This document shows, in pieces, positions 16,497-42,780 of a stretch of 64,000 nucleotides of DNA. The first letter of the stretch is position 1, and every line of letters starts with the position of its first letter. Below the pieces are notes generated by a model, which did no database searches, was not told the DNA's origin, and was given only the letters and a program-made list of their open reading frames with translations. Position numbers and translations under genes: made by a program. Origin of the DNA: an uncultured Gammaproteobacteria bacterium (GTDB taxonomy: Bacteria; Patescibacteriota; Microgenomatia; UBA8517); contig OZ246419.1 of assembly GCA_965231135.1 (NCBI GenBank), positions 184,754 to 248,753 on the forward strand, read 5' to 3'.

Positions 16497-16787
16497 ATGG
16501 CATTACAAATAGACGAGAAACAATCTATAATTAAAAAGTACGCTCGAGAAAAAGGCGATACTGGAAGCCCTGAAGTACAAATTGCGTTACTTACTTCTCA
16601 GATTGAGAAATTAGTAAAACATTTAGGTGAACATGGAAAAGATGTAAACTCAAGACGCGGCCTTTTATCAATGGTTGCAAAGCGACGCAGACTTTTAAGC
16701 TATCTCCAAAAAAGAGATAAAGAGAGATTTGATAAACTCTCACAAGGATTAGGATTAAAGAAATCAAATAAAAATGAAGAAAAATAA
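16497..16787 (+). CDS. rpsO: 30S ribosomal protein S15
   Basis: GDTGSPEVQIALLTSQI...HSRRGLL matches S15. The start is taken at MALQI (ATG at 16497); the track ORF starts from TTG at 16479. Confidence 0.85.
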   Translation: MALQIDEKQSIIKKYAREKGDTGSPEVQIALLTSQIEKLVKHLGEHGKDVNSRRGLLSMVAKRRRLLSYLQKRDKERFDKLSQGLGLKKSNKNEEK

Positions 16788-16814
16788 GCAGAGCTTGTCA
16801 GCTAAAGCTGATAA
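16784..16814 (+). repeat. 31-nt compound palindromic element ATAAGCAGAGCTTGTCAGCTAAAGCTGATAA in the rpsO-pnp spacer
   Basis: It contains the rpsO TAA stop. A copy inside rpoB (37616-37646) matches it at 30 of 31 positions, and shorter copies sit at other gene ends. Confidence 0.6.
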
Positions 16815-16815
16815 C

Positions 16816-19128
16816 ATGATAGAAAAGTCCATTGATCTTGGCGGACGAAAACTTACACTTCAAACAGGAAAAATAGCTGGACAAGCTGATGGAGCAGTTC
16901 TAGCTACATACGGCGAAACAGTAGTGCTTGCGACTGTAGTATCTGCAACCCCAAAAATGGTTGTAGACTTTTTACCTCTAACAGTTGATTATCAGGAAAA
17001 ACTTTATGCTGGAGGAAGGATAAAAGGAAGCAGATGGGTAAAACGAGACGGAAAACCATCTGATGAAGAGATTTTAACTTCAAGAGTAATTGATCGTAGC
17101 ATTAGACCTTTGTTTCCAAAAGAATACCGCAATGAAGTACAGGTTATTGTTACAGTTTTATCAGTAGATAAAGAAAATGATCCAAAAATTGTTGGAGCTA
17201 CTGCAGTTTCTGCAGCACTTGCGATGAGCACTGTTCCTTGGATGGGGCCAGTTGCTCCAATCTGCGTAGGACTTAAAGATGGACAATACATTTTGAATCC
17301 AACAGATTCTCAAATGCAAGAATCAAGTCTTGATCTTGTAGTTTCTGCAACTGACAAAGCAGTTGTAATGGTTGAAGCAGGCGCCGCAGAAGTAAGCGAG
17401 GAAGAAGTACAAAAAGGAATTGCTTTTGCACAGGATGAAGGACAAGTTTTAATAAAATTGATAAATGAATTTGCAAAAGAAGTAGGGAAGACAAAACAAG
17501 TTGTAGTTGAACATAAATACGATAAAACAATTGAAGAGAAAGTTAAAAAGGCAATTGGAAACAAATTTGATGAAATTATTCCTGAAATGGCCACAAAAGA
17601 AATGGCTGGGGGGATGTTTTTTGAACTTAAGAATGCAATAATTGATTCTTTTGAAAAAGATAGCGAAAAAATAGAAGCTGCTGAAGTTTATGAAAAATTA
17701 TTTAAGAAAGCAGTACGAGAAATTTTACTTTCTGGAAAGCGACCAGACGGACGAAGCCACACAGAAATAAGACCAATTTGGATTGAAGTTGGCGTACTTC
17801 CACGAACACACGGATCTGCAATATTTACAAGAGGACAAACACAGGTCCTGTCGATTGCAACTCTTGGAACAAGCCAAGTATCACAACTGCTTGAAACAGC
17901 AGAAGGAGAAGAAGAGAAAAATTACATGCATTACTACACAATGGCTCCTTTTACAACTGGAGAGACCGGAAAAGTAGGATCTCCAAACAGACGCGAAATT
18001 GGACATGGGGCACTTGCAGAGCGAGCATTGCAACCAGTTGTTCCTTCTATGAAAGATTTTCCATATACAATTCAAGTAAATTCTGAAGTCATGAGCTCAA
18101 ATGGTTCAACTTCCATGGCAAGCACCTGCGGAAGCACACTTGCTTTGATGGATGCCGGAGTTCCAATAAAATCTCCAGTTTCAGGAATTGCAATGGGTTT
18201 AATTGTTGAAGATGATAAAAAATATGCAGTATTAACTGACATTATTGGACTTGAAGATTTTAATGGTGACATGGATTTTAAAGTTACAGGGACTGATAAA
18301 GGAATTACTGCACTTCAGCTTGATGTAAAAACTTTACAATTAACTCCTAAAATTTTGGGAGAAGCACTTGAACAATCAAAGGCAGCAAGAAAAGAAATTA
18401 TGGATAAAATAAAAGCTGCAATTGCAGAACCAAGGCAATCAGTTTCAAAATATGCACCAAAGATAAAGACAATCAAAATTGATCCAGCAAAAATCGGCGA
18501 AGTTGTAGGCAGCGGAGGCAAAACAATTAAGAAAATAGTTGCAGAAACTGGAGCTGATGTAAAAGTGGAAGATGATGGAAGCGTAAATATTTCTGCAATT
18601 GACAGTGAGGCAATGCAGAAAGCAGTAGATTGGATTGAAGGACTTGTAAAAGAAGTACAACCTGGAGAAATTTATGAAGGAGAAGTAGTTCGTATTCAGC
18701 CATTTGGAGCTTTTGTACAAATACTTCCAGGCAAAGACGGCATGGTTCATGTATCTGATATGAGCGAGAATCCAGAAGAATTTGTCGACAATGCTGAAAG
18801 CAAAGTAAAAGTAGGAGATAAAGTAAAGGTGAGAGTAAAAGAAGTTGATCAAATGGGCAGAATTAATCTTTCAATGAGAATGGATCCATCGACTGATAAA
18901 CAAAAATCTGACCGCAACGGCGGAGATCGAGGAGGACGTGGAGGCTTCAGAGGAGGAGACAGACGGGGCGGTTTTGGCAGACGAGATGATCGAGGGCCAA
19001 GAAGAAGTTTTGGCGGACAGAGGAGAGATTTTCACAGAAACGATAGAGGATTTTCACGAGGAAGAAATGATGGGGAACAAGGCGGACCTCATTTTCCAGC
19101 TAGCAGATTTGTTGAAGAAAACAAATAA
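16816..19128 (+). CDS. pnp: polyribonucleotide nucleotidyltransferase (PNPase) with a C-terminal RGG-rich tail
   Basis: Two RNase PH domains plus KH and S1 domains. The start is taken at MIEKSIDLGGRKLTLQTGK, which aligns with E. coli PNPase residue 1; the track ORF extends to 16774. The last roughly 75 aa are Arg/Gly-rich. Confidence 0.9.
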   Translation: MIEKSIDLGGRKLTLQTGKIAGQADGAVLATYGETVVLATVVSATPKMVVDFLPLTVDYQEKLYAGGRIKGSRWVKRDGKPSDEEILTSRVIDRSIRPLFPKEYRNEVQVIVTVLSVDKENDPKIVGATAVSAALAMSTVPWMGPVAPICVGLKDGQYILNPTDSQMQESSLDLVVSATDKAVVMVEAGAAEVSEEEVQKGIAFAQDEGQVLIKLINEFAKEVGKTKQVVVEHKYDKTIEEKVKKAIGNKFDEIIPEMATKEMAGGMFFELKNAIIDSFEKDSEKIEAAEVYEKLFKKAVREILLSGKRPDGRSHTEIRPIWIEVGVLPRTHGSAIFTRGQTQVLSIATLGTSQVSQLLETAEGEEEKNYMHYYTMAPFTTGETGKVGSPNRREIGHGALAERALQPVVPSMKDFPYTIQVNSEVMSSNGSTSMASTCGSTLALMDAGVPIKSPVSGIAMGLIVEDDKKYAVLTDIIGLEDFNGDMDFKVTGTDKGITALQLDVKTLQLTPKILGEALEQSKAARKEIMDKIKAAIAEPRQSVSKYAPKIKTIKIDPAKIGEVVGSGGKTIKKIVAETGADVKVEDDGSVNISAIDSEAMQKAVDWIEGLVKEVQPGEIYEGEVVRIQPFGAFVQILPGKDGMVHVSDMSENPEEFVDNAESKVKVGDKVKVRVKEVDQMGRINLSMRMDPSTDKQKSDRNGGDRGGRGGFRGGDRRGGFGRRDDRGPRRSFGGQRRDFHRNDRGFSRGRNDGEQGGPHFPASRFVEENK

Positions 19129-19224: not shown

Positions 19225-19980
19225 TTATTTATTATTCAAAGGAGCAACTAATGGTTTAACGCGGGAGTAAGCTTGAAGAAGAAGCCATCTATCAATTTCA
19301 ATTCCTGGAATTAAGGAAAGTCTGTAACCACGGCCTTCTTTGAAGTTTTCAAGTCCTTGTAGGTTTTCAAAAGAACGCACGATTCTTGCACCCTGGGTTA
19401 GTCCAATTATTATGGTAGGATATATAGGGTAAGCTTCGCCGGCTATTATACTTCCAAAACATAATACAATTTGAAATCCATCCAGTTTGTCAGTTAGAGT
19501 GGTCTTACTAAGAAGTAAGTGTTCAGTGCCTTGTTTTCTAATTGCCTGTTTTATAGCTAAATTAATTTGATTAGACCATTCTGAGGAATTTTTGGTTGCT
19601 AAACCTTTGTCGTTTATTCTTTGTCTTATTTCACTTGTGTTTAAGTTAACTTGTAACTCTGGCCATGAGTAATGTTTACTATTTCCCTTTATATGTTTAT
19701 CTGGATTCAATTCATTTGATTGTATTGCAACTTCGTTTACTTTAGTTGCACCCATAATTGCAGAGTTTCCAGATCTGCCTATAATTTGAGCTTCGACAGA
19801 AGATACGTCACCATTATTTTTACTTACTATTTTTAAATGTCGGAATCCTGCTAAATGTATTAATTGTGTTGCATAAGTTGTGTCTATGCCGATTGAATCT
19901 TCTTGACCGTAAGGAAGCTGAACTTCAGTTCTGACACGGGAACTTTGGGCATTACCTATTGATTGTATTCTTTCTCCCAC
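19225..19980 (-). CDS. hypothetical protein
   Basis: 251-aa ORF convergent with pnp. No recognisable motif. Confidence 0.35.
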   Translation of the reverse strand: MGERIQSIGNAQSSRVRTEVQLPYGQEDSIGIDTTYATQLIHLAGFRHLKIVSKNNGDVSSVEAQIIGRSGNSAIMGATKVNEVAIQSNELNPDKHIKGNSKHYSWPELQVNLNTSEIRQRINDKGLATKNSSEWSNQINLAIKQAIRKQGTEHLLLSKTTLTDKLDGFQIVLCFGSIIAGEAYPIYPTIIIGLTQGARIVRSFENLQGLENFKEGRGYRLSLIPGIEIDRWLLLQAYSRVKPLVAPLNNK

Positions 19981-20038: not shown

Positions 20039-21079
20039 ATGGCTCTCAATAATTCTGATTTAAATAATTTAGAAGATAAAATAAATAAAACATATTTACC
20101 TGAAGAACTGAGATCTCAAGTAAATGTGAAACTTAATCAACTTGATAAACTTAGTGGAACTGATGCATTTTTAACTGAAGTAGACAGATTAACCAGTTAT
20201 GTTGATTGGATCACTTCCCTACCTTGGCAAAATCGTACGAAAGATATTTTAGATTTAGATTATGCAAAGAAAGTTTTAGATTCACATCATTATGGCCTTG
20301 GAGAAATTAAAGACAGAATTTTTGAATATTTGTCTGTAATGAAACTAAAAGGAGCCGATACGAAAGATATAGCGAGAGCTCCAATTCTTTGCTTTGTGGG
20401 ACTTGTTGGAACTGGAAAAACGACAATTGCTTTAAGCATTGCTGAAGCTATGGGACGAAAGTTTGCAAGAATTCCCTTTGGAGGAATGGGAGATCCGCTT
20501 GATCTTCGCGGACAATCAAGACTTCATCCTGAAGCAGAACCGGGAAAAATTATAAAAGCACTTCGCACTTGCGGCAGTAAGAATCCTGTAATACTTCTTG
20601 ATGAAATTGATCGTGTAACTGCTGAGGGACGTTCATCGATCATGGGAGTTTTGGTTGAACTTCTTGATCCTGGACAAAATAGTGCATTTGTTGATCATTA
20701 CATAGATTTCCCATTTGATTTGTCTGAAGTGCTTTTTATTGCAACAGCAAATAATACAACAAATATTGCGACAGCAGTATTGGATCGCCTTGAGCCATTA
20801 CAAATGCCAAGTTATACAGATCAGGAAAAAATTATGATTGCAAGGCAATATGTCCTTCCGCATAAAATGAAAGAAGCAGGATTAACTGATCAACAGCTTT
20901 CGTTTGATGAAAATGTTTGGCCGCAAATTGTAAGACCACTTGGCTATGACGGCGGAATTCGTACACTTGAGAGAACAATTGATGGAGTTGTCCGTAAAGT
21001 TGCGAGAGAAATTGTGGAAGGAAAGTCGCAAAGCGTCACGATCTCCCCTACTAATGCCAAGAATTATTTACCACAATGA
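20039..21079 (+). CDS. Lon-family AAA+ ATPase module with no proteolytic domain
   Basis: The sequence YVDWITSLPW...HYGLGEIKDRIFEYLSV, the Walker A motif GLVGTGKTT, the Walker B motif ILLDEIDR and the sensor motif FIATANN align with the LonA ATPase region. The ORF ends before the Ser-Lys protease domain. Confidence 0.8.
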   Translation: MALNNSDLNNLEDKINKTYLPEELRSQVNVKLNQLDKLSGTDAFLTEVDRLTSYVDWITSLPWQNRTKDILDLDYAKKVLDSHHYGLGEIKDRIFEYLSVMKLKGADTKDIARAPILCFVGLVGTGKTTIALSIAEAMGRKFARIPFGGMGDPLDLRGQSRLHPEAEPGKIIKALRTCGSKNPVILLDEIDRVTAEGRSSIMGVLVELLDPGQNSAFVDHYIDFPFDLSEVLFIATANNTTNIATAVLDRLEPLQMPSYTDQEKIMIARQYVLPHKMKEAGLTDQQLSFDENVWPQIVRPLGYDGGIRTLERTIDGVVRKVAREIVEGKSQSVTISPTNAKNYLPQ

Positions 21080-21678
21080 GTAAAAGAGAAGAACTTACTA
21101 AACTTCGAGAGGAAATGCTTAAGGATGATCTGCTTCCACTTAAAAATGGCGCGACGAATCTGGTTTTTGGAAACGGCACACCAAACAGCAAAATACTTTT
21201 TATTGGCGAGGGGCCAGGGTTTAATGAAGATCAACAAGGATTGCCGTTTGTGGGAGCGGCAGGAAAATTACTTGATAAAACTTTGGAATCTATAGGACTA
21301 CATAGAAAAGATGTCTTTGTAACAAATGTGGTGCATCACCGGCCGCCGGAAAATCGCGATCCTCTTCCTGAAGAGCTTGGTGCTTATGGAAAATATTTAG
21401 ATAAAATTATTGAAATAATAAAACCAAAGGTGATTGTGACTTTGGGAAGATTTAGTATGGGGAAATTTTTGTCTGAAGTAAAAATCAGCACTGTTCATGG
21501 AAAAGAAAAAAGAATAAAATGGCATAACTTGAATTTAGTTGTGGTGCCGATGTATCATCCTGCAGCAGCACTTCGAAACGGAAATATGATGACAAGCTTT
21601 AAAGAAGATTTTTTGAAATTACCAAAAATTATTGAAGAGAATACAAAAGAAGAAATGAAACAAGATAGTTTAATATGA
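21076..21678 (+). CDS. family-4 uracil-DNA glycosylase
   Basis: Motif A is GEGPG...PFVGAAG and motif B is HPAAALRNG. An ATGA overlap couples it to the Lon-like gene. Confidence 0.8.
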   Translation: MSKREELTKLREEMLKDDLLPLKNGATNLVFGNGTPNSKILFIGEGPGFNEDQQGLPFVGAAGKLLDKTLESIGLHRKDVFVTNVVHHRPPENRDPLPEELGAYGKYLDKIIEIIKPKVIVTLGRFSMGKFLSEVKISTVHGKEKRIKWHNLNLVVVPMYHPAAALRNGNMMTSFKEDFLKLPKIIEENTKEEMKQDSLI

Positions 21679-23351
21679 GTCTTAAATTTATACCAATATC
21701 TGGAACAACTGGAGTTACTGAGAACTGCTATGTCTATGAGTCAGGTGACTCAATGATTGTAGTTGACTGCGGAGTTGGTTTTCCAGAACCTGAAATGTAC
21801 GGAGTTGATTTAATTATTCCGGACTTTACTTATATAAAAGAAAATAAAAATAAATTGAAGGGAATTTTTATTACTCATGGGCATGAAGATCATATTGGTG
21901 CTCTCCCCTTTTTACTTAAAGATGTTCAAGCTCCGATTTATGCAACTAAGTTAGTGGCAGCTTTTATTCAAGATAAATTTGAGGACTATGAAACTGCCGC
22001 TCCTAAAGTCACAATAATTGATCCGGAGAAAGATGTGATTGCGGCAGGGCCTTTTAAAGTAAGCAGTTTTAGAATTTCACACAGCGTTCCGGACGGCGTT
22101 GGTTTTTGTATAGAAACTCCCGAAGGAAAAGCTTTCCATGTACCGGATTATAAATTTGACTGGACCCCAGTTGACGGAAGACCTTTTGATGTACAACGAG
22201 CTGCTATTTTGGCTGCGGGAGGAAATACTTTAATGCTTGCATCTGATGCACTTGGAGCGACGAGCCCGGGCCATACTGAAAGCGAAGCTTCGCTTGAGGG
22301 GAAAATTTACAATATTGCTGAGAAAGCAAAAGGGCAAATATTTTTTACAACTATTTCTTCAAACATATCGCGCATGCAGCAAGCAATTAATGTGGCACAA
22401 AAACTAAACCGTAAAGTTGTTTTTGTGGGACGTTCGATAGATCGAAAAGCAAATATTGCGAAGAACTTAGGGTTTTTGAGTTATCCAAATGGTTTAGTTA
22501 TAAGTGCCAAGCAGGCAGGAAAGCTAAATGATAAGCGGAGCTTGTCACTTCGTGATAATCAAATAATGTACATAATATCAGGAAGTTATGGGCAGCCAGG
22601 AAGTGCACTTTATCGTGTTGCTTTAAATGAGCATGAATTTTTAAGTATTGCTAAAGATGATGTGGTGATATTTTCTTCAGATCCTGCGCCGCCAGGGAGC
22701 AAAACAAATGTTGATTTTGTAGTAGATCATATTATCGAAGACGGAGCTGATGTGCATTATTATGATTTACAGGAAGATCTTCATGTATCAGGACACGGGT
22801 GTATTGAGGATATTAAATTTTTATTTGGAATAATTAAACCAAAATATTTTGTGCCAATTGGAGGAACGATAAGACATAACAGAGAATATGCTCGAATAGC
22901 TGAAGATATGGGAAATGATATTCGTAATGTATTTCAATTAAAAGAAGGAGATGTTTTAGAATTTATAAACAAAAATGCACAAATTAATGGACATATTCCT
23001 GTAAAAAGCGTTTTAGTTGACGGACTTGGAGTTGGCGATGTTGGAAATGTAGTACTACGAGACCGCAATGTTTTAGCGAGAGAAGGAGTTGCAATTGCGA
23101 TAATACAAGTAGACTCTGCTACGCAAAAGATTGTAGATGCACCGGAAATAATTTCAAGAGGATTTGTATTCAGCGGAAAAAGTACTGGGCTACTTCAGGA
23201 AGCAGGAAAGGCTCTGATGCAGAATTTACAAAAGAAAAATCAGATGGATGGAAAGGTGGCGAAGGATGCAAGCGTTGATTTTCTTGAAAGATATTTCTTT
23301 GAGAAACTGCAGAGAAGGCCAATGATTTTACCTGTGATTGTGGAAGTATGA
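21675..23351 (+). CDS. rnj: ribonuclease J
   Basis: Metallo-beta-lactamase HGHEDHIG plus the beta-CASP domain and a C-terminal domain, 558 aa in total. Confidence 0.9.
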   Translation: MSLKFIPISGTTGVTENCYVYESGDSMIVVDCGVGFPEPEMYGVDLIIPDFTYIKENKNKLKGIFITHGHEDHIGALPFLLKDVQAPIYATKLVAAFIQDKFEDYETAAPKVTIIDPEKDVIAAGPFKVSSFRISHSVPDGVGFCIETPEGKAFHVPDYKFDWTPVDGRPFDVQRAAILAAGGNTLMLASDALGATSPGHTESEASLEGKIYNIAEKAKGQIFFTTISSNISRMQQAINVAQKLNRKVVFVGRSIDRKANIAKNLGFLSYPNGLVISAKQAGKLNDKRSLSLRDNQIMYIISGSYGQPGSALYRVALNEHEFLSIAKDDVVIFSSDPAPPGSKTNVDFVVDHIIEDGADVHYYDLQEDLHVSGHGCIEDIKFLFGIIKPKYFVPIGGTIRHNREYARIAEDMGNDIRNVFQLKEGDVLEFINKNAQINGHIPVKSVLVDGLGVGDVGNVVLRDRNVLAREGVAIAIIQVDSATQKIVDAPEIISRGFVFSGKSTGLLQEAGKALMQNLQKKNQMDGKVAKDASVDFLERYFFEKLQRRPMILPVIVEV

Positions 23352-23729
23352 AGAAATATTATTGTTTGGGTCAACGTAATCTTCAAGAAATTCTCCGTCA
23401 TCTCCTAATTTTATTTTTTCTCTACTTTTTCGTTTAGGTTTTTCAGGTTGATAGTTTAATGATTGTTTTAGTTTGTTTACTTTACTGTTTATTCTGTTTT
23501 GAATGAATAAATTTATTATTTCATAAGTGGTATTTAGTCCCCAAGTAATTACAGCAGTTTCATAGATAAATGTAGAGGTGGGAATGTGAGATTGATTGTT
23601 ATATAAAAGTGCCATAAATTCTGAGAGTTGTGTTATTCCCTGTATAATTAAAACGTTTCCTCTTGTTTTGCTTTGCTCTTGTAGTTTTCCTAATTCAACT
23701 GCTTGTTGTAGTTGTTCGTTTTCTAACAT
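23328..23729 (-). CDS. hypothetical protein
   Basis: 133-aa ORF whose 3' end overlaps rnj by 24 nt. No motif found. Confidence 0.25.
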   Translation of the reverse strand: MLENEQLQQAVELGKLQEQSKTRGNVLIIQGITQLSEFMALLYNNQSHIPTSTFIYETAVITWGLNTTYEIINLFIQNRINSKVNKLKQSLNYQPEKPKRKSREKIKLGDDGEFLEDYVDPNNNISSYFHNHR

Positions 23730-23788: not shown

Positions 23789-25903
23789 ATGGCTCGTGAA
23801 CCCGTAAAAAAGCGCAAGGATAAGCGCGCTTATAAAATGAAAATGAAGCCTGAGACGGCTCAGAGTCTTGCCCAGATACTTTTTTTTGCACTTGCAGGAC
23901 TTGTTGTTGTTTCATTTTCTCGGGAAGGATTGATACTTGTTAAGTTAAACGACTATCTTCTACAGTTTTTTTCCTGGACTGCTATTTTTTTACCTTTTAT
24001 TTTTGTTGCTTGCGCTTTCTTTCTATCGAAATTTAAAAGGCCTTTGGGACAGCCAAATGTGATTGTAGGATTTTTGCTTTTTTTTATTTCATTAAATGCA
24101 ATTGTACAAGGAGGCCAAATTGGGGAAACTACTTTTGGATCAGTTGCTGCACTTCTTACAAATATTGGAGCATTTATAATGTATCTGGGAGTAATGATTA
24201 TTGGAATAATCATTTTATTTGATACTTCGCTTGATACAATACTTGCTTTGATTGCAAAAGGACTAATAAAGTTGAAGGGTTATATTTTGGGAGATAAAAC
24301 TCTGGCGACTATAAATTTGAAAGATAAAAGTGAATTGAAAGTCATAGGAGCCACTTCTTCTACAGAGAATCAAACACAAAAACAGAACACAGCGCCTGCT
24401 CAAAAAACTTCAGAAATGGAACAGAAAATTATTAGTAATGTTCCTGGCGAAACCAAAGTTTGGAAGTATCCTCCAAAATCTATTTTGACTCAGACTCAAG
24501 CAGGGCATGCTGACCGAGGCGATATAAAAGGCAATGCAAAAATTATTGAGCAAACACTCGAATCTTTTGGAGTGACAGCGCGCGTTGTTGAAGTAAACTT
24601 GGGACCTGCAGTTACTCAGTATGCACTTGAAGTAGCTCTTGGAACAAAACTTGCAAAAATTACAGGACTTGAGCGTGATTTGGCGAGAGCACTATCTTCT
24701 CCAACTGGAGCAATAAGAATTGAAGCGCCAATTCCCGGGCGAAACTTAGTGGGTATTGAACTTCCAAACAGAATGGCTGAATTTGTACCAATGAAGAAAA
24801 TGATGGATAGCGAGACTATGCAAAACGCTAAAAGCAAACTTGCTGTTGCTCTTGGATTTGATGTGACTGGAAAACCAATAATTGCTGATATTGGAAAAAT
24901 GCCACATGTACTTATTGCTGGACAAACAGGAAGCGGAAAATCTGTCTGTATAAATACTTTTTTGGCATCATTACTTTTTAGAGCATCACCAGCAGAACTT
25001 AAACTAATTCTTGTTGATCCGAAACGGGTTGAGCTTACTGGATATAATAATATTCCCCATTTGCTTACGCCAGTGATTGTTGAGCCGGAAAAAGTTGTTT
25101 CGGCGCTTCGTTGGCTGATGGCAGAAATGGACAGGCGATATAAACTTTTTGCTGAAGCTGGGGCGCGCAATATTGACGGATATAATGAAATGAGCGGATT
25201 TCAAGCACTTCCGTATATAGTTTTATTTATTGATGAGTTGGCTGATATTATGCTTTTTTCACCTGTAGAAGTTGAAGACTCCATAACTCGTATTGCGCAA
25301 ATGTCACGAGCTGTGGGAATCCATATGGTCCTTGCAACTCAGAGACCTTCAGTTGATGTTATTACAGGGCTTATTAAAGCAAATGTTCCAACTCGTATTG
25401 CTTTTGCTGTTTCGTCTTTAGTTGATTCAAGAGTTATTCTTGACACTCAAGGAGCTGAAAAATTATTGGGTAAAGGAGACATGCTTTATTTGCCACCGGA
25501 ATCTGCAAAGCCTGCACGTATTCAGGGAGCATTTGTTTCTGATAAAGAAATTGCAGATTTGGTGACATTTATTAAAAATGAAGGAGTGCCAACACAATAT
25601 ACTGAAGAAGTTACATCGATGTCTAAGGCTGGGCCTGGAGGAGCATCTTCTTCGGTTCCTGGAGCACCTGCTGATGCTGATGATTTATTTGCAGAGAGCG
25701 TGAGACTTATTTGCCAATATGACAAAGCTTCTGCTTCGTTACTTCAGCGAAGACTTTCAATTGGATATGCAAGAGCTGCACGTATACTTGATCAACTTGA
25801 AGCTGCTGGGGTTGTAGGACCTGCTGACGGAGCAAAACCACGCGAGGTGAAAATAAAAGATGCAGAAAGCTTTTTAAGCGGCGGACAAGCGGCTTCGGAA
25901 TAA
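23789..25903 (+). CDS. ftsK: DNA translocase FtsK/SpoIIIE
   Basis: N-terminal TM helices, a motor domain with LIAGQTGSGKS, and a C-terminal gamma winged helix (LLQRRLSIGYARAARILDQLE). Confidence 0.9.
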   Translation: MAREPVKKRKDKRAYKMKMKPETAQSLAQILFFALAGLVVVSFSREGLILVKLNDYLLQFFSWTAIFLPFIFVACAFFLSKFKRPLGQPNVIVGFLLFFISLNAIVQGGQIGETTFGSVAALLTNIGAFIMYLGVMIIGIIILFDTSLDTILALIAKGLIKLKGYILGDKTLATINLKDKSELKVIGATSSTENQTQKQNTAPAQKTSEMEQKIISNVPGETKVWKYPPKSILTQTQAGHADRGDIKGNAKIIEQTLESFGVTARVVEVNLGPAVTQYALEVALGTKLAKITGLERDLARALSSPTGAIRIEAPIPGRNLVGIELPNRMAEFVPMKKMMDSETMQNAKSKLAVALGFDVTGKPIIADIGKMPHVLIAGQTGSGKSVCINTFLASLLFRASPAELKLILVDPKRVELTGYNNIPHLLTPVIVEPEKVVSALRWLMAEMDRRYKLFAEAGARNIDGYNEMSGFQALPYIVLFIDELADIMLFSPVEVEDSITRIAQMSRAVGIHMVLATQRPSVDVITGLIKANVPTRIAFAVSSLVDSRVILDTQGAEKLLGKGDMLYLPPESAKPARIQGAFVSDKEIADLVTFIKNEGVPTQYTEEVTSMSKAGPGGASSSVPGAPADADDLFAESVRLICQYDKASASLLQRRLSIGYARAARILDQLEAAGVVGPADGAKPREVKIKDAESFLSGGQAASE

Positions 25904-29461: not shown

Positions 29462-30796
29462 ATGACTGGAAACGAAGTTCGTAAAAAATATTTAGAGTTT
29501 TTTGAAAAACGAGGACATAAAATAATTAAACCTGCTCCGCTTGTTTTGAAAGACGACCCAACTACTTTGTTTACGTCAGCTGGAATGCAACCATTAGTTC
29601 CATATCTTTTGGGTAAAGCTCATGATGAAGGTAAACGATTAACAGATTCTCAACCTTGTTTTAGATCTCAAGATATTGAAGAGGTTGGTGACAATCGACA
29701 CGATACGTTGTTTGAAATGCTTGGGAATTGGAGTTTAGGAGATTATTTCAAAAAGGAGCAAATCCCCTGGATTTGGGAATTTATTATAAAAGAACTTGGA
29801 CTTAATCCTGAAAATATTCATGTAACACTTTATGAAGGAAATGAAAGCGTACCTAAAGACGAGGAAACATATAAATTGTGGAGAGAATTGGGAATTTCTG
29901 ATGAAAGAATTCATTATTATAAAAATAAAAATTGGTGGAGTATTTCAGGGCCACCTGAAAATATGAGAGATGGAGAAGTAGGAGGACCTGATAGTGAAAT
30001 CTTTTTTGAGTTTGAAAACGTAAAGCACGATCCGAAATATGGTAAAGAATGTCATCCTAATTGTGACTGTGGTAGATTTTTGGAAATTGGGAATTCTGTT
30101 TTTATCCAGTACAAAAAGGTTGACGGGAAACTTGTAGAGCTTCCAAATAAAAATGTGGATTTTGGAGGAGGACTTGAGAGATTAACTGCTGCAACAAGTA
30201 ATGACCCTGATATTTTTAAGTCAGATTTATTTTGGCCTGTCATTGAAAAAATAGAAGAGCTTTCTGGTAAGAAATATGAAGATTATCAATCTTCAATGAG
30301 AATTATTACAGATCACATTAAGGCTTCAACATTTTTGATTGCAAACGGGGTCACCCCAAGTAATAAATTGCAAGGATATGTTTTAAGAAGATTGCTGCGA
30401 CGTGCGGCTCTTCAAATGAGAAATTTAAATATTGATTTGTCTCAAAAAGATTTTAATGAAATGTTTGTTATTGTAGAAAAAGTTTTTGATATTTATTCTT
30501 TATATTTGGATAAAAAAGATTTGGTAAAAGTGCAAGCTGAAATAACTTCTGAACTTGAAAAGTTTGGAAGAGCTTTGGAAAACGGAGTCAAAAGGATAAA
30601 TAAAACTGATATTAAAGATATAGATGAAAAATTTGCATTTGATTTGATGCAAAGTGAGGGATTTCCATTTGAAATCACACAAGAGTTGGTTGGAAAAAAA
30701 GGAGTTAATTTGGATAAAAATAAATTTGAAGAAATGCTTCGCGAACATCAGGAGCTTTCAAGGAAATCTTCAGAGGATAAATTTAAAATTAAATAA
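29462..30796 (+). CDS. alaS: alanyl-tRNA synthetase, catalytic plus tRNA-recognition domains only (no editing or C-Ala domains)
   Basis: FTSAGMQPL, FEMLGNWSLGDYFK and GGGLERL align to AlaRS residues 1 to about 460. The ORF stops at 444 aa, and the next gene is unrelated. Confidence 0.8.
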   Translation: MTGNEVRKKYLEFFEKRGHKIIKPAPLVLKDDPTTLFTSAGMQPLVPYLLGKAHDEGKRLTDSQPCFRSQDIEEVGDNRHDTLFEMLGNWSLGDYFKKEQIPWIWEFIIKELGLNPENIHVTLYEGNESVPKDEETYKLWRELGISDERIHYYKNKNWWSISGPPENMRDGEVGGPDSEIFFEFENVKHDPKYGKECHPNCDCGRFLEIGNSVFIQYKKVDGKLVELPNKNVDFGGGLERLTAATSNDPDIFKSDLFWPVIEKIEELSGKKYEDYQSSMRIITDHIKASTFLIANGVTPSNKLQGYVLRRLLRRAALQMRNLNIDLSQKDFNEMFVIVEKVFDIYSLYLDKKDLVKVQAEITSELEKFGRALENGVKRINKTDIKDIDEKFAFDLMQSEGFPFEITQELVGKKGVNLDKNKFEEMLREHQELSRKSSEDKFKIK

Positions 30797-35736: not shown

Positions 35737-35778
35737 CGACCTTAGGTCTACTTGGAGTGTAGACATAATTCTCGTCTG

Positions 35779-38700
35779 ATGGCAAATAAACAAAATCGCC
35801 GCAATTTTGGCAGAACAGAAAACAATTTACCTGAGCTTGATTTGTCTTTGGTTCAAAGACAATCTTGGGATTGGTTTTTAAAAGAAGGAATTTCGGAAGA
35901 ACTTACAAATATTTCTCCAGTTGAAGATTTTGCAGGAAAAAATTGGGAACTTTCTTTTGGTAAACATACTCTTGAAGCCTCTCAAGTTACCCCAAAAGAA
36001 GCAAGAGAAAAAGGAATAACATACTCAACTCCATTTAAAGTCGAAACAACACTCACAAATAAAAGAACAGGAGCATCTGTCACACAGGAAGTTTTCTTTG
36101 GAAATATTCCACAAATGACAACTGTTGGAACATTTATTATTAATGGAATTGAAAGAACTGTTATTAACCAAATCGTTCGAAGCCCAGGAGCATATTTCTC
36201 AGGAACTTTGGATGCAGCAAGCGGCCGTATGCTTTATAAAGCAGAAATAAGACCACTTCATCACGGAAGCTGGCTTGAATTTGAAACTGGACGAAACGAT
36301 GTTATTTCAGCTCGCATTGATCGACGCCGAAAGGTAAATGCCGCAACCATACTTCGCGCTCTTGGAATTTATTCAAATGATGAAATTACAAGAATTTTTG
36401 CTGATGTGAATAAAGACGGAAATCATAATTATGTACAAAAGACTATTGAAAAAGATCCAACAAGAACAAGAGAAGATGCACTTCTTGAAATTTACAAGAA
36501 ACTTCGACCTGGAGAACCAGCTCTTTTGGATAATGCAGAAACACTTTTCCATAACCTTTTCTTTGATAACCGCCATTACGACTTAGGAAAAGTTGGAAGA
36601 TATAAAATTAATAAGAGATTAGGACTTAATGTTGAAAATAATAAACAAAACTGGGTACTTACAAAAGATGATATTGTCCAAACACTTCATTATTTAATTG
36701 GACTTCAAAATGGAATTGGACGAGTTGATGATATTGACCATCTTTCAAACAGACGCCTTCGATGTGTCGGGGAACTTGTTGCAACTCATGCATTTCGTAC
36801 AGGACTTTTAAGACTTGAAAGATCTATAAAAGAGAAAATGTCTTTGGTTTCTCAAGAAGAAAAACCAAATCCATCAGCTTTAATTAACGCAAGACCATTA
36901 ATCGCTTCTTTGAATGAATTTTTCAGAAGCAATCAGCTTTCAACAATACTTGATAATACAAATCCACTTTCAGAAATAGATAATTTACGAAGAGTATCTG
37001 TTTTAGGACCTGGAGGAATTAATCGAGAACGTGCGAGCTTTTCAATCCGAGACGTTAATCCTTCTCAATATGGAAGAATTGATCCTGTCAGGTCTCCAGA
37101 AGGAATGAACATTGGACTTGTTACTTATTTAACTCTTTATGCACGTGTAAACGAATTTGGATTTATTGAGACACCTTACAAAAAAGTTGATAATAGAAAA
37201 ATTACTAATGAAATTGTTTATTTAACTGCTGACGATGAAGAGAAATATTACATTACTCACAACGGAATTAATATTGATGACAGCGGAAAAATAACAGACG
37301 ACAGAGTTGCTATCCGATATGCAGGAAACTTTACAGAAGGATCTTCAAAGTTGGTTCAATATATCGATTTGACACCAAGGCAGGTATTTGGAGCATCTGC
37401 ATCTTTAATTCCTTTCCTTGACCACGATGAAGGAAACCGTGCTCTTATGGGAAGTAACATGCAATGTCAGGCTGTTCCACTTGTTGCGCCAAGCTCACCA
37501 GTTGTTGGAACAGGAATGGAAGCGACTGTTGCCTCTTCAATGGGAAGAGTTGTAAAAGCTGAATATCCAGGAACTGTTTCTTTTGTTGATGCAGACAAAA
37601 TTGAAATTAAACTTGATAAGCAAAGCTTGTCAGCTAAAGCTGATAAAAAATTGCCTGACGATGCTGTTTTGTCTAGAGATGGTAAAACAATTACTTATTA
37701 TTTGACTAAATTCTGGAGAACTTCACAATCAACTTGTTATAACCAGAAAGCTAAAGTAGTTCTCGGACAGAAATTAAACCCTGGAGACTTAATAATTGAT
37801 GGACCTGCTACAGAAGACGGAGAACTTGCACTGGGTCAAAATTTAGTTGTAGCTTATGCATCAATTTCCGGATACGGATTTGAAGATGCAATTTTGATTT
37901 CTGACAGAATAGTTAAGGATGACCTACTTACTTCAATTAACATTCGTGAATATACAGCTGACGTTGTTGAAACAAAACTTGGACCTGAAGTTGTTACAAA
38001 AGATATTCCAAACGTTTCTGAAGACCAATTAGCTAATTTGGCAAGTGATGGAATTGTTGTTGTCGGAGCTGAAGTTCATCCAAATGACATCTTGGTCGGA
38101 AAAATTGCACCAAAAGGTGAAATGGAACTTACTGCAGAAGAAAGACTTCTTCGTGCTATCTTTGGAGAGAAAGCAAGAGAAGTCCGAGATACATCACTTC
38201 GAGTGCCACACGGAGAAGAAGGAATTGTTATTGATGTACAAGTACTTAGCAAAGAAAAAGGAGATGAACTTGCACCTGGAGTAATATCTTCTGTAATTGT
38301 TAAAGTTGCACAACTTCGTAAAGTAACTGTAGGAGACAAAATTGCAGGGCGACATGGAAACAAAGGTGTTATTTCAAAAATAATGCCTGAAGCTGATATG
38401 CCTTACTTGCCAGATGGAACTCCAGTTGATTTGGTTATATCACCTCTTTCGGTACTTGCTCGTATGAATCTTGGACAATTACTCGAATGTCATTTGGGAT
38501 GGGCACTTGATAAGAATCATTCGAAAGCAAGCGTACCTGTCTTTGATAAGATTCCAGAAAGCAAGATTCACGATGAACTTAAAGAGGCTGGACTTCCAGT
38601 TTCTGGAAAAACAAGACTTATTGATGGAAGAACTGGAGAGGCACTTTCTGAAGATACAGTTGTTGGAATTGGATACATCATGAAGCTTAAGCACATGATT

Positions 38701-41700
38701 GAAGATAAGACACATGCACGTAGCACTGGTCCATATTCTCTTGTTACACAACAACCACTTGGAGGAAAAGCACAAATGGGAGGACAAAGACTTGGAGAAA
38801 TGGAAGTCTGGGCACTTGAAGCACATAGAGCAGCTCATACTTTGCAGGAAATGTTGACAATAAAATCTGATGATATTGTAGGACGCGCTGCAGCATTTGG
38901 AGCAATTGTTAAAGGACAGGAAATTCCTGAAGCTAAAATACCTGAAAGCTTTAAAGTATTGGTTCGAGAACTTAATGCACTTGGACTTGCAATTGATGTT
39001 GATGGAACAATGGCAGCAGTTACTGAAGAGCACACAACTGATGACGGAGTAGTAATCCAAGAAAAGAAACAACCAGTTACTGATCCACTTTTAAAGCTTC
39101 GCGAACTCGAAGATCTTAAATCTTTGCAAATTAAACTTGCCAGCGAAGGTGAAATAAGATCCTGGAGCCGAGGAGAAGTTACAAAACCAGAGACTATAAA
39201 CTACAGAACACTTAAACCTGAAAAAGACGGACTTTTTGATGAGAGAATATTTGGTCCAACACGCGACTGGGAATGTTACTGTGGAAAGTATAAAAGAATT
39301 CGTTATAAGGGAGTAATTTGCGATAAATGTGGAGTTGAAGTTACAGAAAGCAGAGTTCGACGAGAGAGAATGGGACATATTGCACTTGCAGCTCCTGTAG
39401 TTCATGTATGGTTTTTCAAAGGAGCACCAAGCAAAGTATCTTTACTTCTTGATTTGCCTCCTCGCGCTATTGAGCAAGTTGTCTATTTTGCAAGATATAT
39501 TGTTATGAGCGTTGATGATAAAAAGAGAAAAGAAGCAATTGATGTCTTAATAAAGACTCGAGAAGAAAAAATTAAAGAAACTCGAGAGATTTCTGCAGAA
39601 CGCCGAGAACTTATAAAACAAGACGGAGAAGATCGTAAAGGAAAGATAGCAAACAGAATCAAAGATAAAGAACAAGCAGCTCTTGCAATCAGCGAAGTTG
39701 ATCTTGATGTACGTAAGAAAGAAACTACTTTGGTTGAAGAAGAAAAAGCAACTATTGAGAAAACAACCGAACTTTTTGATCGCATGACTGATTTGGTTAA
39801 GAAAATTAGTCCTTTTGGATTTTTATCTGAGGATGAATACGATCAGCTTTCAACTTATGATGTATCTGATTTTCTTGAAGTAAAAATGGGAGCAGAAGCT
39901 CTTCTTATAGCCTTAAGCAAACTTAATTTGGATGAACTTTCAAAGAGTTTGCGAGCAGAACTTGAAGGATTGCAAGGAAAAGGTGCAAGATATTTGAAAG
40001 TTGCAAAAAGACTTAAGCTTATTGACGGACTTCGTGAGGCAAAAGTAAGCCCAACAAGCGTTATTTTGAAAGTAATCCCAATACTTCCACCAGATTTACG
40101 ACCAATGGTCCAACTTGCTGGAGGAAGATTTGCAACTTCTGACTTGAATGATTTATATAGACGCGTAATAAATAGAAATAACAGACTTAAGCATCTTATT
40201 GGCCTTGGTGCACCAGATATTATTTTAAGGAATGAAAAAAGAATGTTGCAGGAAGCTGTTGACTCTTTAATTGATGCATCTCAGCGAAAAGCTATGCGAC
40301 GTGGACGAGGAAGACTTGCACTTCGATCACTTTCTGACATGCTTAAAGGAAAGCAAGGAAGATTTAGAGCAAATCTTTTGGGTAAGCGTGTGGATTACTC
40401 CGGACGTTCAGTTATTATTGTTGGGCCTGAACTTAATTTGAATCAATGTGGACTTCCAAAGGAAATGGCGCTGGAAATGTTTAAGCCATTTGTACTTCGA
40501 GAAGTTATTAAGCGAGAAATTGCACCTAATGTGAAATCTGCAAAGAATTTACTTGAACGCCGACCACCAGAAGTGTTTGATATTTTGGAAGAAATTACAA
40601 AAGATCATCCAGTGTTACTTAATCGTGCACCAACACTTCATAAACTTGGAATTTTGGCATTTTACCCAGTTTTAATTGAAGGAAGCGCTATCAGACTTCA
40701 TCCAGCAGTATGTTCTGGGTTTGGAGCTGACTTTGACGGAGATCAAATGGCAGTACATGTCCCACTTTCTAAGAAAGCAATCGAAGAAGCTAAGACTCTT
40801 ATGATGTCTGATAAGAATTTACTTAAGACATCTGACGGATCGCCTGTTGCAACGCCCGCTTCAAAGGAAATGGCGCTTGGAGTTTATTATTTCACAAGTT
40901 TAGATACAAGAATGAAAGCTTCTGAAACAATTTTTGCTGACAAAGCTGAAGCAATATTTGCTTATCAAATTGGAAAAGTAGCTTTAAGACAACAAATCAA
41001 GGTCAAAGTTGATAATGAAGTAAATGAAACAACTGTTGGACGCATTTTATTTAATGAAATACTTCCAGAAGGATTTAGATTTGTAAACGAAAACGTTTCT
41101 TCTGGAATTATTAAAGATTTAGTCACTGAAGCTTATACAAAAGTATCTCAAGAGAGACTTGTAAAACTTATTGATGATATTAAGAACCTTGGATTTGTTG
41201 GAGGAACAATTTCAGGACTTTCATTTGCGGTGTCGGATGCTGCAATATTTGAAGGAAAAGCAAAAATTATTAAGGAAGCAGATAAAAAAGTCGACGAAAT
41301 TGAAAAAAGTTTCCATCAAGGTCTTATTACAAACGAAGAAAAGAAAAGAAGCATTCAACAAATCTGGATTGAAACAACTGAAGAAATTGCTGACAAAACC
41401 TGGAATGTAATACCTGCTGATTCACCAATTCGCACAGTTATTGATGCTAAAGTGGGACGCACTTCCCGTGACCAGATTAAGCAGCTTGGTGGAATGAGAG
41501 GTTTGGTCGTTGATCCGCTTGGAAAAATCGTTGAACTTCCTGTCAAAAGCAACTTTAGAGAAGGGCTTTCAGTTTTTGAATATGTTGCATCAGGACGCGG
41601 ATCTCGTAAAGGACTTACTGATACAGCTTTGAAAACAGCTGATGCAGGATATCTTACACGTCGATTAGTTGATGTAACTCATGATGTATTAATTCGTGAA

Positions 41701-42780
41701 GAAGACTGCGGAACAAAAGACGGAATTCTTATTAAAAAATCAGTACGAGGAGGAAGTTTCTACAAGAGAATTTTTGGAAGATTTGATACAAACGGAGAAC
41801 TTATTGATGAAAAGCGAGCAAAAGAACTGGCAGATGATGCAAATGTTACAGAATTTGTAGTTCGTTCCCCTCTTACATGTAAGACAAGATTTGGAGTTTG
41901 CCAGAAGTGTTATGGATGGGACCTTTCAAATAAACAGGTTGTAGAACTTGGAATGCCAATTGGAGTTATTGCGGCACAATCAATTGGAGAACCTGGAACT
42001 CAGCTTACACTTAGAACCAAACATAGCGGAGGAGTTGTTGGAGCTGACGTTACACAAGGACTTCCAAGAGTTGAAGAGTTATTTGAATCTCGTATTCCAA
42101 AAACAGTATCGCCAATTTCTGAAATAGCTGGAAAAGTATCTATCAAAGAGAGCGAAGACGGGAATGTTGTTAAAGTCACAAGTGTTAATACCAAACCAAA
42201 AGAAGAGCGAGAATATATTATCGCAAAGACAAACAAGATTAGTGTTGAGGATGGACAACTTATCGATGCAGGAACACAACTAGCTAGCGGATACCTTGAT
42301 ATTAAAGAAATATTACAAGTACGAGGACTTGGAGCAGCACAAGAATATTTGGTAAATGAATTACAGGCAGTTTATGAATCACAGGGAATTTCAATTAATG
42401 ATCGCCATTTTGAAATCATTGTCCGCAAGATGTGTGATACAGTCCGCATTTTGACAAGCGGAGACAGCAGATTCTTGCCAGAAGAGCTTACTGATAAATC
42501 AACATTTGAAGAAGAAGTTGAAAAAGTTATCGCATCAGGCGGAGAAGCAGCAACTGCAAGACAAATTATACTTGGAGTCACAAAGAGAGCTTTGTACACA
42601 AACAGCTGGCTATCTAGCGCATCTTTCGAACAGACAACTGATGTTTTGGCCGAGTCAGCACTAGAAGGAAGCAAAGATCGCTTACTTGGACTTAAAGAGA
42701 ATGTTATTATTGGCCGCCTAATTCCAATTGATCCAAAGAGAGCGGCTCTTCATGGACAAGCTGAGCCTGCTGCTGTATAA
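35779..42780 (+). CDS. rpoBC: fused DNA-directed RNA polymerase beta-beta' subunit (rpoB-rpoC in one ORF)
   Basis: The ORF is continuous. The beta C terminus ([27 protein letters not shown]...[17 protein letters not shown]) joins, through a linker of about 45 aa, the beta' N terminus ([35 protein letters not shown] plus the Zn finger CYCGKYKR...CDKCGVEV). The start is taken at the first ATG (MANKQ); the track ORF begins 27 nt upstream at a TTG. Confidence 0.9.
37616..37646 (+). repeat. in-frame copy of the 31-nt intergenic palindromic element, inside rpoB
   Basis: ATAAGCAAAGCTTGTCAGCTAAAGCTGATAA encodes [10 protein letters not shown]. It matches the rpsO-pnp spacer element at 30 of 31 positions. 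Confidence 0.6.

Follow-up and report, generated by a model that had tools for sequence, protein, structure and literature searches.

Lon proteases are at the moment classified as LonA, LonB, LonC and LonBA, in all of which an A domain is followed by a P domain (PMC9569914), and by definition Lon unites ATPase and protease in one chain (PMC9569914). In LonA of M. taiwanensis (MtaLonA), Tyr397 of pore loop 1 and Trp431 of pore loop 2 are in contact with the substrate during translocation, and degradation needs both residues (PMC8503904). Here we analyse a stretch of 64,000 nucleotides, referred to as the window, from contig OZ246419.1 (positions 184,754 to 248,753 of the forward strand; assembly GCA_965231135.1), which originates from an organism deposited as an uncultured Gammaproteobacteria bacterium and placed by GTDB in Patescibacteriota (Microgenomatia; UBA8517). 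All coordinates given below are those of the window. It contains a gene, here named LonAAA, whose product departs from the definition of Lon together with a whole family of relatives. On balance, it is probable that LonAAA is a stand-alone, non-proteolytic ATPase derived from Lon.

Domain architecture and ATPase site

The LonAAA gene occupies positions 20039-21079 of the plus strand and codes for 346 amino acids (aa). Its open reading frame (ORF) has no possible 5' extension, because the start is the first start codon after an upstream stop. The Pfam scan yields two matches only, AAA (PF00004; 3.7e-17, 63.5 bits) and Lon_lid (PF22667; 1.4e-11, 44.3 bits), both above cutoff, and none to Lon_C (PF05362). 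Similarity to the endopeptidase La model TIGR00763 (E=3.7e-100) is confined to model positions 252-572 of 795, and the scores stay under the equivalog cutoffs of both this model (336.6 vs. 608.05 bits) and NF008053 (254.4 vs. 891). When E. coli Lon was compared with the window by six-frame tblastn, only residues 254-579 were aligned, at 20069-21070 and with 38% identity, and neither the N domain (E. coli residues 1-240) nor the protease domain had a match in the 64 kb. Beyond the LonAAA stop codon the Lon frame is interrupted by many further stops, and the same DNA codes for a uracil-DNA glycosylase (UDG). With stops throughout the downstream frame and an intact UDG gene in its place, no frameshifted S16 domain is concealed there.

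A preliminary description of this locus, made from the DNA sequence, had recognised a Lon AAA+ module that ends at the protease junction and lacks the N-terminal domain, and had named a frameshifted or overlooked S16 domain as the finding that would overturn this view. Such a domain was looked for in the window by the six-frame search and by translation of the downstream frame, and none was found; the architecture stands and is shared by the relatives discussed below. Compared with LonA, both the substrate-binding LON domain at the N terminus (PF02190) and the S16 domain with its Ser-Lys dyad (PF05362) are missing, the end of the protein corresponding approximately to E. coli residue 579. The LonA-type AAA+ module of the HCLR clade is complete and comprises Walker A and B, sensor 1, the Arg finger, sensor 2 and the Lon lid. 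Among the features that define the Lon protease family, LonAAA possesses the AAA+ module itself and nothing else, and its nearest functional match would be the A domain of LonA.

The protein consists of an N-terminal helical region, an alpha/beta ATPase subdomain and the Lon lid, all encoded on the plus strand. The N-terminal five-helix region (aa 1-110; 20039-20368), with the LPW and HYGL motifs, is homologous to approximately residues 254-350 of E. coli Lon, and its helices span residues 6-17, 22-37, 42-60, 73-83 and 88-104 of the structural model. Walker A (aa 121-128, with K127 and T128; 20399-20422) reads GLVGTGKT, the canonical Lon sequence being GPPGVGKT. Pore loop 1, RGQSRLHPEAEPG (aa 157-169; 20507-20545), takes the place of RGHRRTY[IV]GxxPG in LonA. 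Further elements are Walker B, VILLDEID (aa 184-191, with D188 and E189; 20588-20611), the pore loop 2 region, RVTAEGRSS (aa 192-200; 20612-20638), the sensor-1 residue Asn238 (20750-20752) and the Arg finger Arg250 within DRLE (20786-20788). The Lon-type lid, or alpha subdomain (aa 278-331; 20870-21031), is the part matched by PF22667 and includes the sensor-2 residue Arg308 in GIRTLER. K127, T128, D188, E189, N238, R250 and R308 are invariant in all 97 genomic copies compared and in all 16 representatives of an unbiased set, and the ATPase site is, as judged from this conservation, under strong purifying selection. The claim of the preliminary description that the gene has the full LonA ATPase signature is accurate for the catalytic motifs, which are complete, and not for the pore loops, which are not LonA-like.

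The module is clearly of LonA type. The top sequence matches in PDB are all LonA or LONP1 proteins (E from about 1e-76 to 1e-78; 6.8e-78 for B. subtilis LonA, 3m6a). Prediction of the structure of the 346-aa product, proposed in the preliminary description, gave an AlphaFold2 model (predicted local distance difference test score 83.6, predicted template modelling (TM) score 0.75) with the Lon AAA+ fold, which Foldseek aligns to LonA and LONP1 protomers with TM scores of 0.84-0.86. The isoelectric point (pI) of LonAAA is 5.5, the family mean being 6.3 and the value for canonical Lon AAA modules 6.9. Direct nucleic-acid binding was considered on the ground of charge, and this argument was dismissed, as there is no basic shift in pI.

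The LonAAA family in Patescibacteria and its pore loops

LonAAA is not an isolated protein. The search over 5.8 billion proteins found relatives of 344-352 aa and 67-100% identity in more than 120 protein clusters, the named ones belonging to Patescibacteria, Microgenomates or Woesebacteria. They are labelled "AAA family ATPase" at NCBI and "ATP-dependent Lon protease" in JGI/IMG. Divergent members with 38-58% identity (P0130, P0139, P0149, P0150, P0158, P0189 and others) were obtained by a HMMER scan of 1.84 billion representatives clustered at 50% identity. The short proteins among them all end at the lid/protease junction, some having low-complexity N-terminal extensions, and two proteins, P0170 and P0167, carry C-terminal tails of 80-200 aa in which no Pfam domain was recognised. 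In addition, a degenerate DNA pattern, designed by hand after the pore loop of the family, was run against 185,579 species genomes, and 117 of the 120 matches listed are true members. They come from Levy-, Shapiro-, Ames-, Davies-, Gottesman-, Curtiss- and Woesebacteria, WWE3, Dojkabacteria, Nomurabacteria and unclassified Patescibacteria; several genomes in this sample are mislabelled metagenome-assembled genomes.

The end point of the protein is a constant feature of the family. In all 109 genomic copies with a complete 3' end (109/109) the ORF stops 0-10 residues past the position where LonAAA ends. The protease domain of E. coli Lon (tblastn, E<=1e-5) matched none of the 80 downstream flanks of the related loci, and its N domain none of the 73 upstream flanks. 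In a neighbour-joining tree of AAA+ modules, computed from 18 sequences of the short family and 65 canonical or tandem Lon modules, the short proteins form one clade (bootstrap 93/100). Given this clade support and the shared end point, the truncated architecture goes back to a single origin and has persisted since. As far as sequence comparison goes, the LonAAA family is a real, monophyletic offshoot of Lon that is widespread in the ultra-small Patescibacteria (Microgenomates lineages, WWE3 and Dojkabacteria). No description of it was found in the full-text literature on Lon and on the candidate phyla radiation (CPR), which is not proof of absence given that many subscription papers lay outside the search, and the family has probably not been described so far.

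The pore loops set the short proteins apart from the full-length Lons. In the unbiased set, pore loop 1 of full-length Lons, recognised by a C-terminal tail of approximately 190-260 aa, always reads RGH[RK][RK]TY[IV]Gxx[PA]G, whereas none of the short members has the Tyr-Ile/Val pair and their consensus is RGxS[RK]xxP[DE]AEPG. LonAAA of the window has His163-Pro164 where LonA has Tyr-Ile/Val, followed by the acidic PEAEPG. Among the 97 genomic copies the position of the Tyr is taken by Phe (32 copies), His (27), Tyr (8) or other residues (30), and Pro mostly follows it. Of the 16 unbiased representatives, 13-15 keep the acidic D/E-A-E-P-G after this Pro; these representatives are the only ones suited to this count, as the DNA pattern used for the genomes demands [DE]AEPGx[IV][IV]K and the frequencies of the acidic motif in the genomic sample are biased for that reason. 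In pore loop 2 the Trp, Met or Phe of canonical Lon is replaced by Glu in LonAAA and by Glu, Asp, Gln or Asn in most of the family. The combination seen in LonA, Tyr-Ile/Val in pore loop 1 with a hydrophobic residue in pore loop 2, is accordingly not that of LonAAA. A family-wide loss of the aromatic pore-loop residue was considered and withdrawn, as 32 Phe and 8 Tyr occur among the 97 genomic copies; what the members have in common is that Tyr-Ile/Val has disappeared as a pair and that the acidic PxAEPG has been acquired. The suggestion in the preliminary description that LonAAA could be a dedicated unfoldase is weakened by the replacement of Tyr-Ile/Val by His-Pro and of the hydrophobic residue of pore loop 2 by acidic or polar ones, MtaLonA needing both of the residues concerned.

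In several large proteins of the representative library, outside the window, Lon-type AAA+ modules occur in tandem, two or three to a chain (P0121, P0122, P0146 and P0140). One Lon_C protease domain terminates each of the first three, no match to Lon_C was obtained for P0140, and several of the modules have non-canonical pore loops.

Gene order around LonAAA

In the window LonAAA is followed on the plus strand by genes for UDG (21076-21678, 200 aa) and RNase J (21675-23351, 558 aa). The three ORFs lie where the preliminary description had placed them, and the two overlaps of 4 nt that it gave are confirmed, both of which have the sequence ATGA: CCA CAA TGA / ATG AGT at 21076-21079 between LonAAA and UDG, and ATA TGA / ATG AGT at 21675-21678 between UDG and RNase J. 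The RNase J product has the Pfam domains RNase_J_b_CASP, RNase_J_C and Lactamase_B (the metallo-beta-lactamase domain) and scores 464.8 bits with TIGR00649, above the cutoff of 400; with the RNase J1 model it stays under the curated cutoff (526 vs. 820). The UDG product matches Pfam UDG and the family 4 model TIGR00758 (180 bits, cutoff 125.3), and motif A, GEGPG (GE[GA]PG), as well as motif B, HPAAALR (HPxxxxR), are found in the translation. Family-4 UDGs typically have four Cys ligands for a [4Fe-4S] cluster. The 200 aa of the UDG in the window include no cysteine at all, so that it is unable to bind the cluster typical of that family. Among 34 UDG homologues encoded beside LonAAA in CPR genomes, 19 have no or one Cys and approximately 12 retain CxxCxLC, which suggests that the cluster was lost within CPR.

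The surroundings of the three genes are those of core housekeeping functions: murJ, dnaK, dnaJ, nusA, infB, rpsO, pnp, LonAAA, udg, rnj, ftsK, a gene for a RodZ-like helix-turn-helix protein, alaS, a fused rpoBC, fusA, tuf and secY. The gene for polynucleotide phosphorylase (PNPase), which in relatives is the conserved upstream neighbour of LonAAA, is found at 16774-19128 on the plus strand and codes for 784 aa including an Arg/Gly-rich (R/G-rich) C-terminal tail. FtsK (23789-25903, plus strand) closes the conserved pnp-LonAAA-(udg)-rnj-ftsK block.

How far this order is kept was counted over the 117 related loci, with only those taken that have enough flanking sequence. RNase J, the most conserved downstream neighbour, lies within 3 kb downstream of LonAAA and on the same strand in 65/80 loci, and PNPase within 3 kb upstream and likewise on the same strand in 52/73. 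FtsK is found further downstream in 30/44 loci, UDG downstream in 30/80 and a Metallophos_2 gene downstream in 6/80. Median gaps are approximately 116 bp between pnp and LonAAA and approximately 72 bp between LonAAA and the next recognised gene. Even relatives that are 83-84% identical have from 0 to 3 extra genes among those of the cluster, the locus being a compact pnp-LonAAA-udg-rnj in one of them (L131) and having several genes interspersed in another (L130). Two closely related genomes (L014 and L088), with copies only 39-40% identical to LonAAA, have the order sufS-sufU-LonAAA-UDG, in which stop and start codons touch. Neither pnp nor rnj is found near the gene in the 11 loci whose members have less than 46% identity, Dojkabacteria and Nomurabacteria among them. 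In six Dojkabacteria-like loci with distant members (L049, L059, L072, L106, L088 and L069) LonAAA adjoins a convergent cluster of ORFs of approximately 810, 211 and 278 aa, with no pnp or rnj.

The comparison of synteny, which the preliminary description had proposed, thus confirms the conservation of RNase J downstream and not that of UDG, and it reveals what had been missed there, that PNPase upstream and RNase J are the best-conserved neighbours. The tight three-gene operon of that description is real in this genome, where the genes are coupled by ATGA, and is lineage-specific rather than a conserved unit; what is conserved is the order pnp-LonAAA-...-rnj-ftsK, in which UDG is a frequent but dispensable insert. 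The same-strand block nusA-infB-rpsO-pnp-LonAAA-(udg)-rnj-ftsK has been compacted locally in this genome, which accounts for the coupling of LonAAA with UDG and RNase J; the three do not form a conserved functional triad. B. subtilis presumably has rpsO-pnpA ... rnjB-tepA-spoIIIE in one neighbourhood without such an ATPase; if so, the pnp-rnj-ftsK block may reflect inherited synteny and not joint function.

Other features of the region can be summarised as follows. In the PNPase of the window, the C-terminal 84 aa (18874-19128) contain 19 Arg and 19 Gly, are apparently disordered and end in ...GGPHFPASRFVEENK. Comparable basic, R/G-rich tails of 35-103 aa are present on the PNPases of 66 related CPR loci (within L010-L129), the recurring motifs at their ends being GPHFP[TA]SR[LFY] or HPL[SA]RQF[RK]RER. 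Between pnp and LonAAA, and outside the conserved cluster, there is a lineage-specific ORF of 251 aa on the minus strand (19225-19980). It has no match in Pfam or PADLOC and is absent from the 117 related loci and from the relatives with 83-84% identity; just upstream of it, at 20016-19988 of the minus strand, is a strong sigma-70-like site, TTGATA-17-TATAAT (11/12). Another minus-strand ORF, of 133 aa (23328-23729), converges on RNase J and overlaps the 3' end of rnj by 24 nt; it has no Pfam match and is annotated as a gene in the public assembly. The alaS ORF (29462-30796) codes for 444 aa that comprise the class II catalytic core only (tRNA-synt_2c, profile positions 1-436 of 552), the alaS products of relatives being longer and having a tRNA_SAD domain. 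The ORF at 35752-42780 codes for 2342 aa with all RpoB (Rpb2) domains followed by all RpoC (Rpb1) domains and is a fused rpoB-rpoC. As to defence, LonAAA has no defence-system signature, the PADLOC search yielding generic P-loop matches only. An anti-phage role like that of the BrxL-type Lon-like proteins was ruled out on the basis of these generic matches and of the housekeeping context.

Possible function and comparison with known systems

As a stand-alone, non-proteolytic ATPase, LonAAA would descend from LonA and have lost the domain for substrate recognition at the N terminus as well as the S16 domain at the C terminus. It would assemble into a Lon-like ring, as is suggested by the retained trans-acting Arg finger and sensor 2, and would hydrolyse ATP. 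Because there is no proteolytic chamber, the output would be remodelling or release of a client, or switching, in place of proteolysis, and LonAAA would act as a chaperone-type ATPase. The variable residue, Pro and acidic stretch of loop 1 and the acidic or polar loop 2 disfavour generic hydrophobic threading; the acidic axial loops might instead provide an electrostatic grip on a specific basic client, or be part of an ATP switch that threads nothing. The acidic character of the channel also argues against threading of nucleic acids and suggests that it would suit basic segments. Precedents exist for Lon proteins that function independently of proteolysis. The proteolytically inactive form of yeast Pim1 reportedly supports the assembly of respiratory complexes. 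For MtaLonC a dual chaperone-protease function has been described (PMC13069640).

There are also considerations that weigh against LonAAA being such an ATPase. Its oligomeric state and its ATPase activity are both deduced from conserved residues. In LonA it is mainly the P and N domains that stabilise the hexamer, and LonAAA is without either. A protease partner acting in trans may be encoded outside the 64-kb window and the flanks that were read. Finally, the 40 of 97 copies with Phe or Tyr at the pore-loop-1 position would be compatible with some members still threading polypeptides, which they may do.

The last two points lead to the alternative of a split Lon, in which LonAAA would work in trans, ClpX/ClpP-like, with a protease subunit encoded elsewhere, be it a stand-alone S16 protein or another peptidase. 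The sequence read here amounts to 64 kb of a contig of approximately 810 kb, the ATPase site is fully intact, and approximately 40% of the family has the aromatic residue just mentioned. We nevertheless regard such an arrangement as rather improbable. No S16 domain was detected in the window or in the flanks of the 80 related loci, and in the representative set no family member carries Lon_C as a fusion, P0170 and P0167 having tails without Pfam domains. Both pore loops lack the residues by which LonA drives its substrate into the chamber. The alignment contains no C-terminal docking motif common to the family, whose termini vary, and no Lon is known in which the P domain is supplied in trans (PMC9569914). 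An explanation of a different kind is that the gene is a Lon cut by an assembly error, a frameshift or recent pseudogenisation. Nothing beyond the unusual architecture speaks for it, and we consider it next to impossible: the same length and end point recur in more than 120 clusters and, across many lineages and assemblies, in all 109 genomic copies that are complete, the downstream DNA is an intact UDG gene, and the members form one clade and have derived motifs in common. The conserved architecture and the invariant catalytic residues refute both an artefact of assembly and a pseudogene.

The gene order has its own reading, namely that LonAAA is a dedicated factor of nucleic-acid metabolism which organises or remodels a PNPase/RNase J RNA-decay complex, for instance by acting on the R/G-rich tail of PNPase, or which assists the repair carried out by UDG. 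The same-strand positions of PNPase and RNase J at short distances in most loci are consistent with it, as are the sufS-sufU-LonAAA-UDG arrangement with touching codons in L014 and L088 and the basic, R/G-rich PNPase tails of the clade, 35-103 aa long, which face an acidic ATPase pore. Some Lon lid domains have been reported to bind DNA, and the Lon AAA+ structure 6n2i was deposited as "DNA-binding ATP-dependent protease La". Yet the argument is one of gene order, and the pnp-rnj-ftsK order may be inherited synteny, given the presumed linkage in B. subtilis. The 11 Dojkabacteria-like and other loci below 46% identity keep LonAAA with neither pnp nor rnj nearby, UDG is present in 30/80 loci only, insertions between the genes of the cluster are frequent even in close relatives, and LonAAA, with a pI of 5.5, has no shift towards the charge of nucleic-acid-binding proteins. 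A direct part of LonAAA in nucleic-acid metabolism therefore seems unlikely to us, and the role in nucleic-acid repair or turnover that the preliminary description had proposed was overstated, being drawn from gene order in what is possibly an old block of synteny.

A more far-reaching and highly speculative scheme, to which we attach little belief, would treat the A-domain-only family as a fifth kind of Lon-lineage protein that replaces Lon protease in Microgenomates, WWE3 and Dojkabacteria. Its acidic pore might use ATP to grip and remodel Arg-rich disordered segments such as the R/G tail of the PNPase encoded upstream, and might thereby control the assembly or turnover of the PNPase/RNase J RNA-decay machine.

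The stand-alone ATPase that we favour has consequences beyond this locus. That a monophyletic, strongly conserved lineage has kept the A domain alone, its catalytic residues intact and its pore loops rewritten, means that the Lon motor has probably been put to non-proteolytic use in a major bacterial radiation. Since relatives of LonAAA are labelled "ATP-dependent Lon protease" in JGI/IMG, metabolic reconstructions of CPR organisms may credit them with Lon proteolysis that this gene does not confer. LonAAA, with its boundaries as in 6n2i, offers a ready-made system for the study of the Lon motor without a chamber, as well as an approach to proteostasis and RNA decay in minimal-genome organisms. 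The weight of these points is tempered by domain loss being common in evolution and by the function of LonAAA being one that we infer.

Among the known systems, the LonA proteins (E. coli Lon, B. subtilis LonA, MtaLonA and human LONP1; MEROPS S16) share with LonAAA the AAA+ module, the helices with LPW and HYGL and the Lon lid. They differ in having the N-terminal domain and the S16 Ser-Lys domain, in their pore loops and in Walker A, which is GPPGVGKT in place of GLVGTGKT. A close counterpart in extent is 6n2i, the engineered "Lon protease AAA+ domain" of E. coli, a chain of 338 residues with boundaries nearly identical to those of LonAAA (TM scores of 0.86 normalised by the query and 0.88 by the target; sequence match of query residues 10-344 with chain residues 13-339). 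However, 6n2i was made in the laboratory by truncating a protease, whereas LonAAA is the product of a natural stand-alone gene and its pore loops have diverged. A functional analogy for a Lon motor working alone or in trans is provided by ClpX and HslU, stand-alone hexameric AAA+ proteins of the HCLR clade with no covalently attached protease. In ClpX and HslU the pore loops have remained aromatic-hydrophobic, and there are defined elements for docking to the peptidase (IGF loops, C-terminal tail). Neither pore loops of this type nor such docking elements are evident in LonAAA. Within the Lon lineage itself, the LonC or ATP-independent Lon-like proteases, such as MtaLonC, are degenerate in a comparable way, one activity having been lost. 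In LonC the protease has been retained and the ATPase is inactive (PMC3391209; PMC13069640), so that it is the mirror image of LonAAA, which keeps the ATPase and has no protease.

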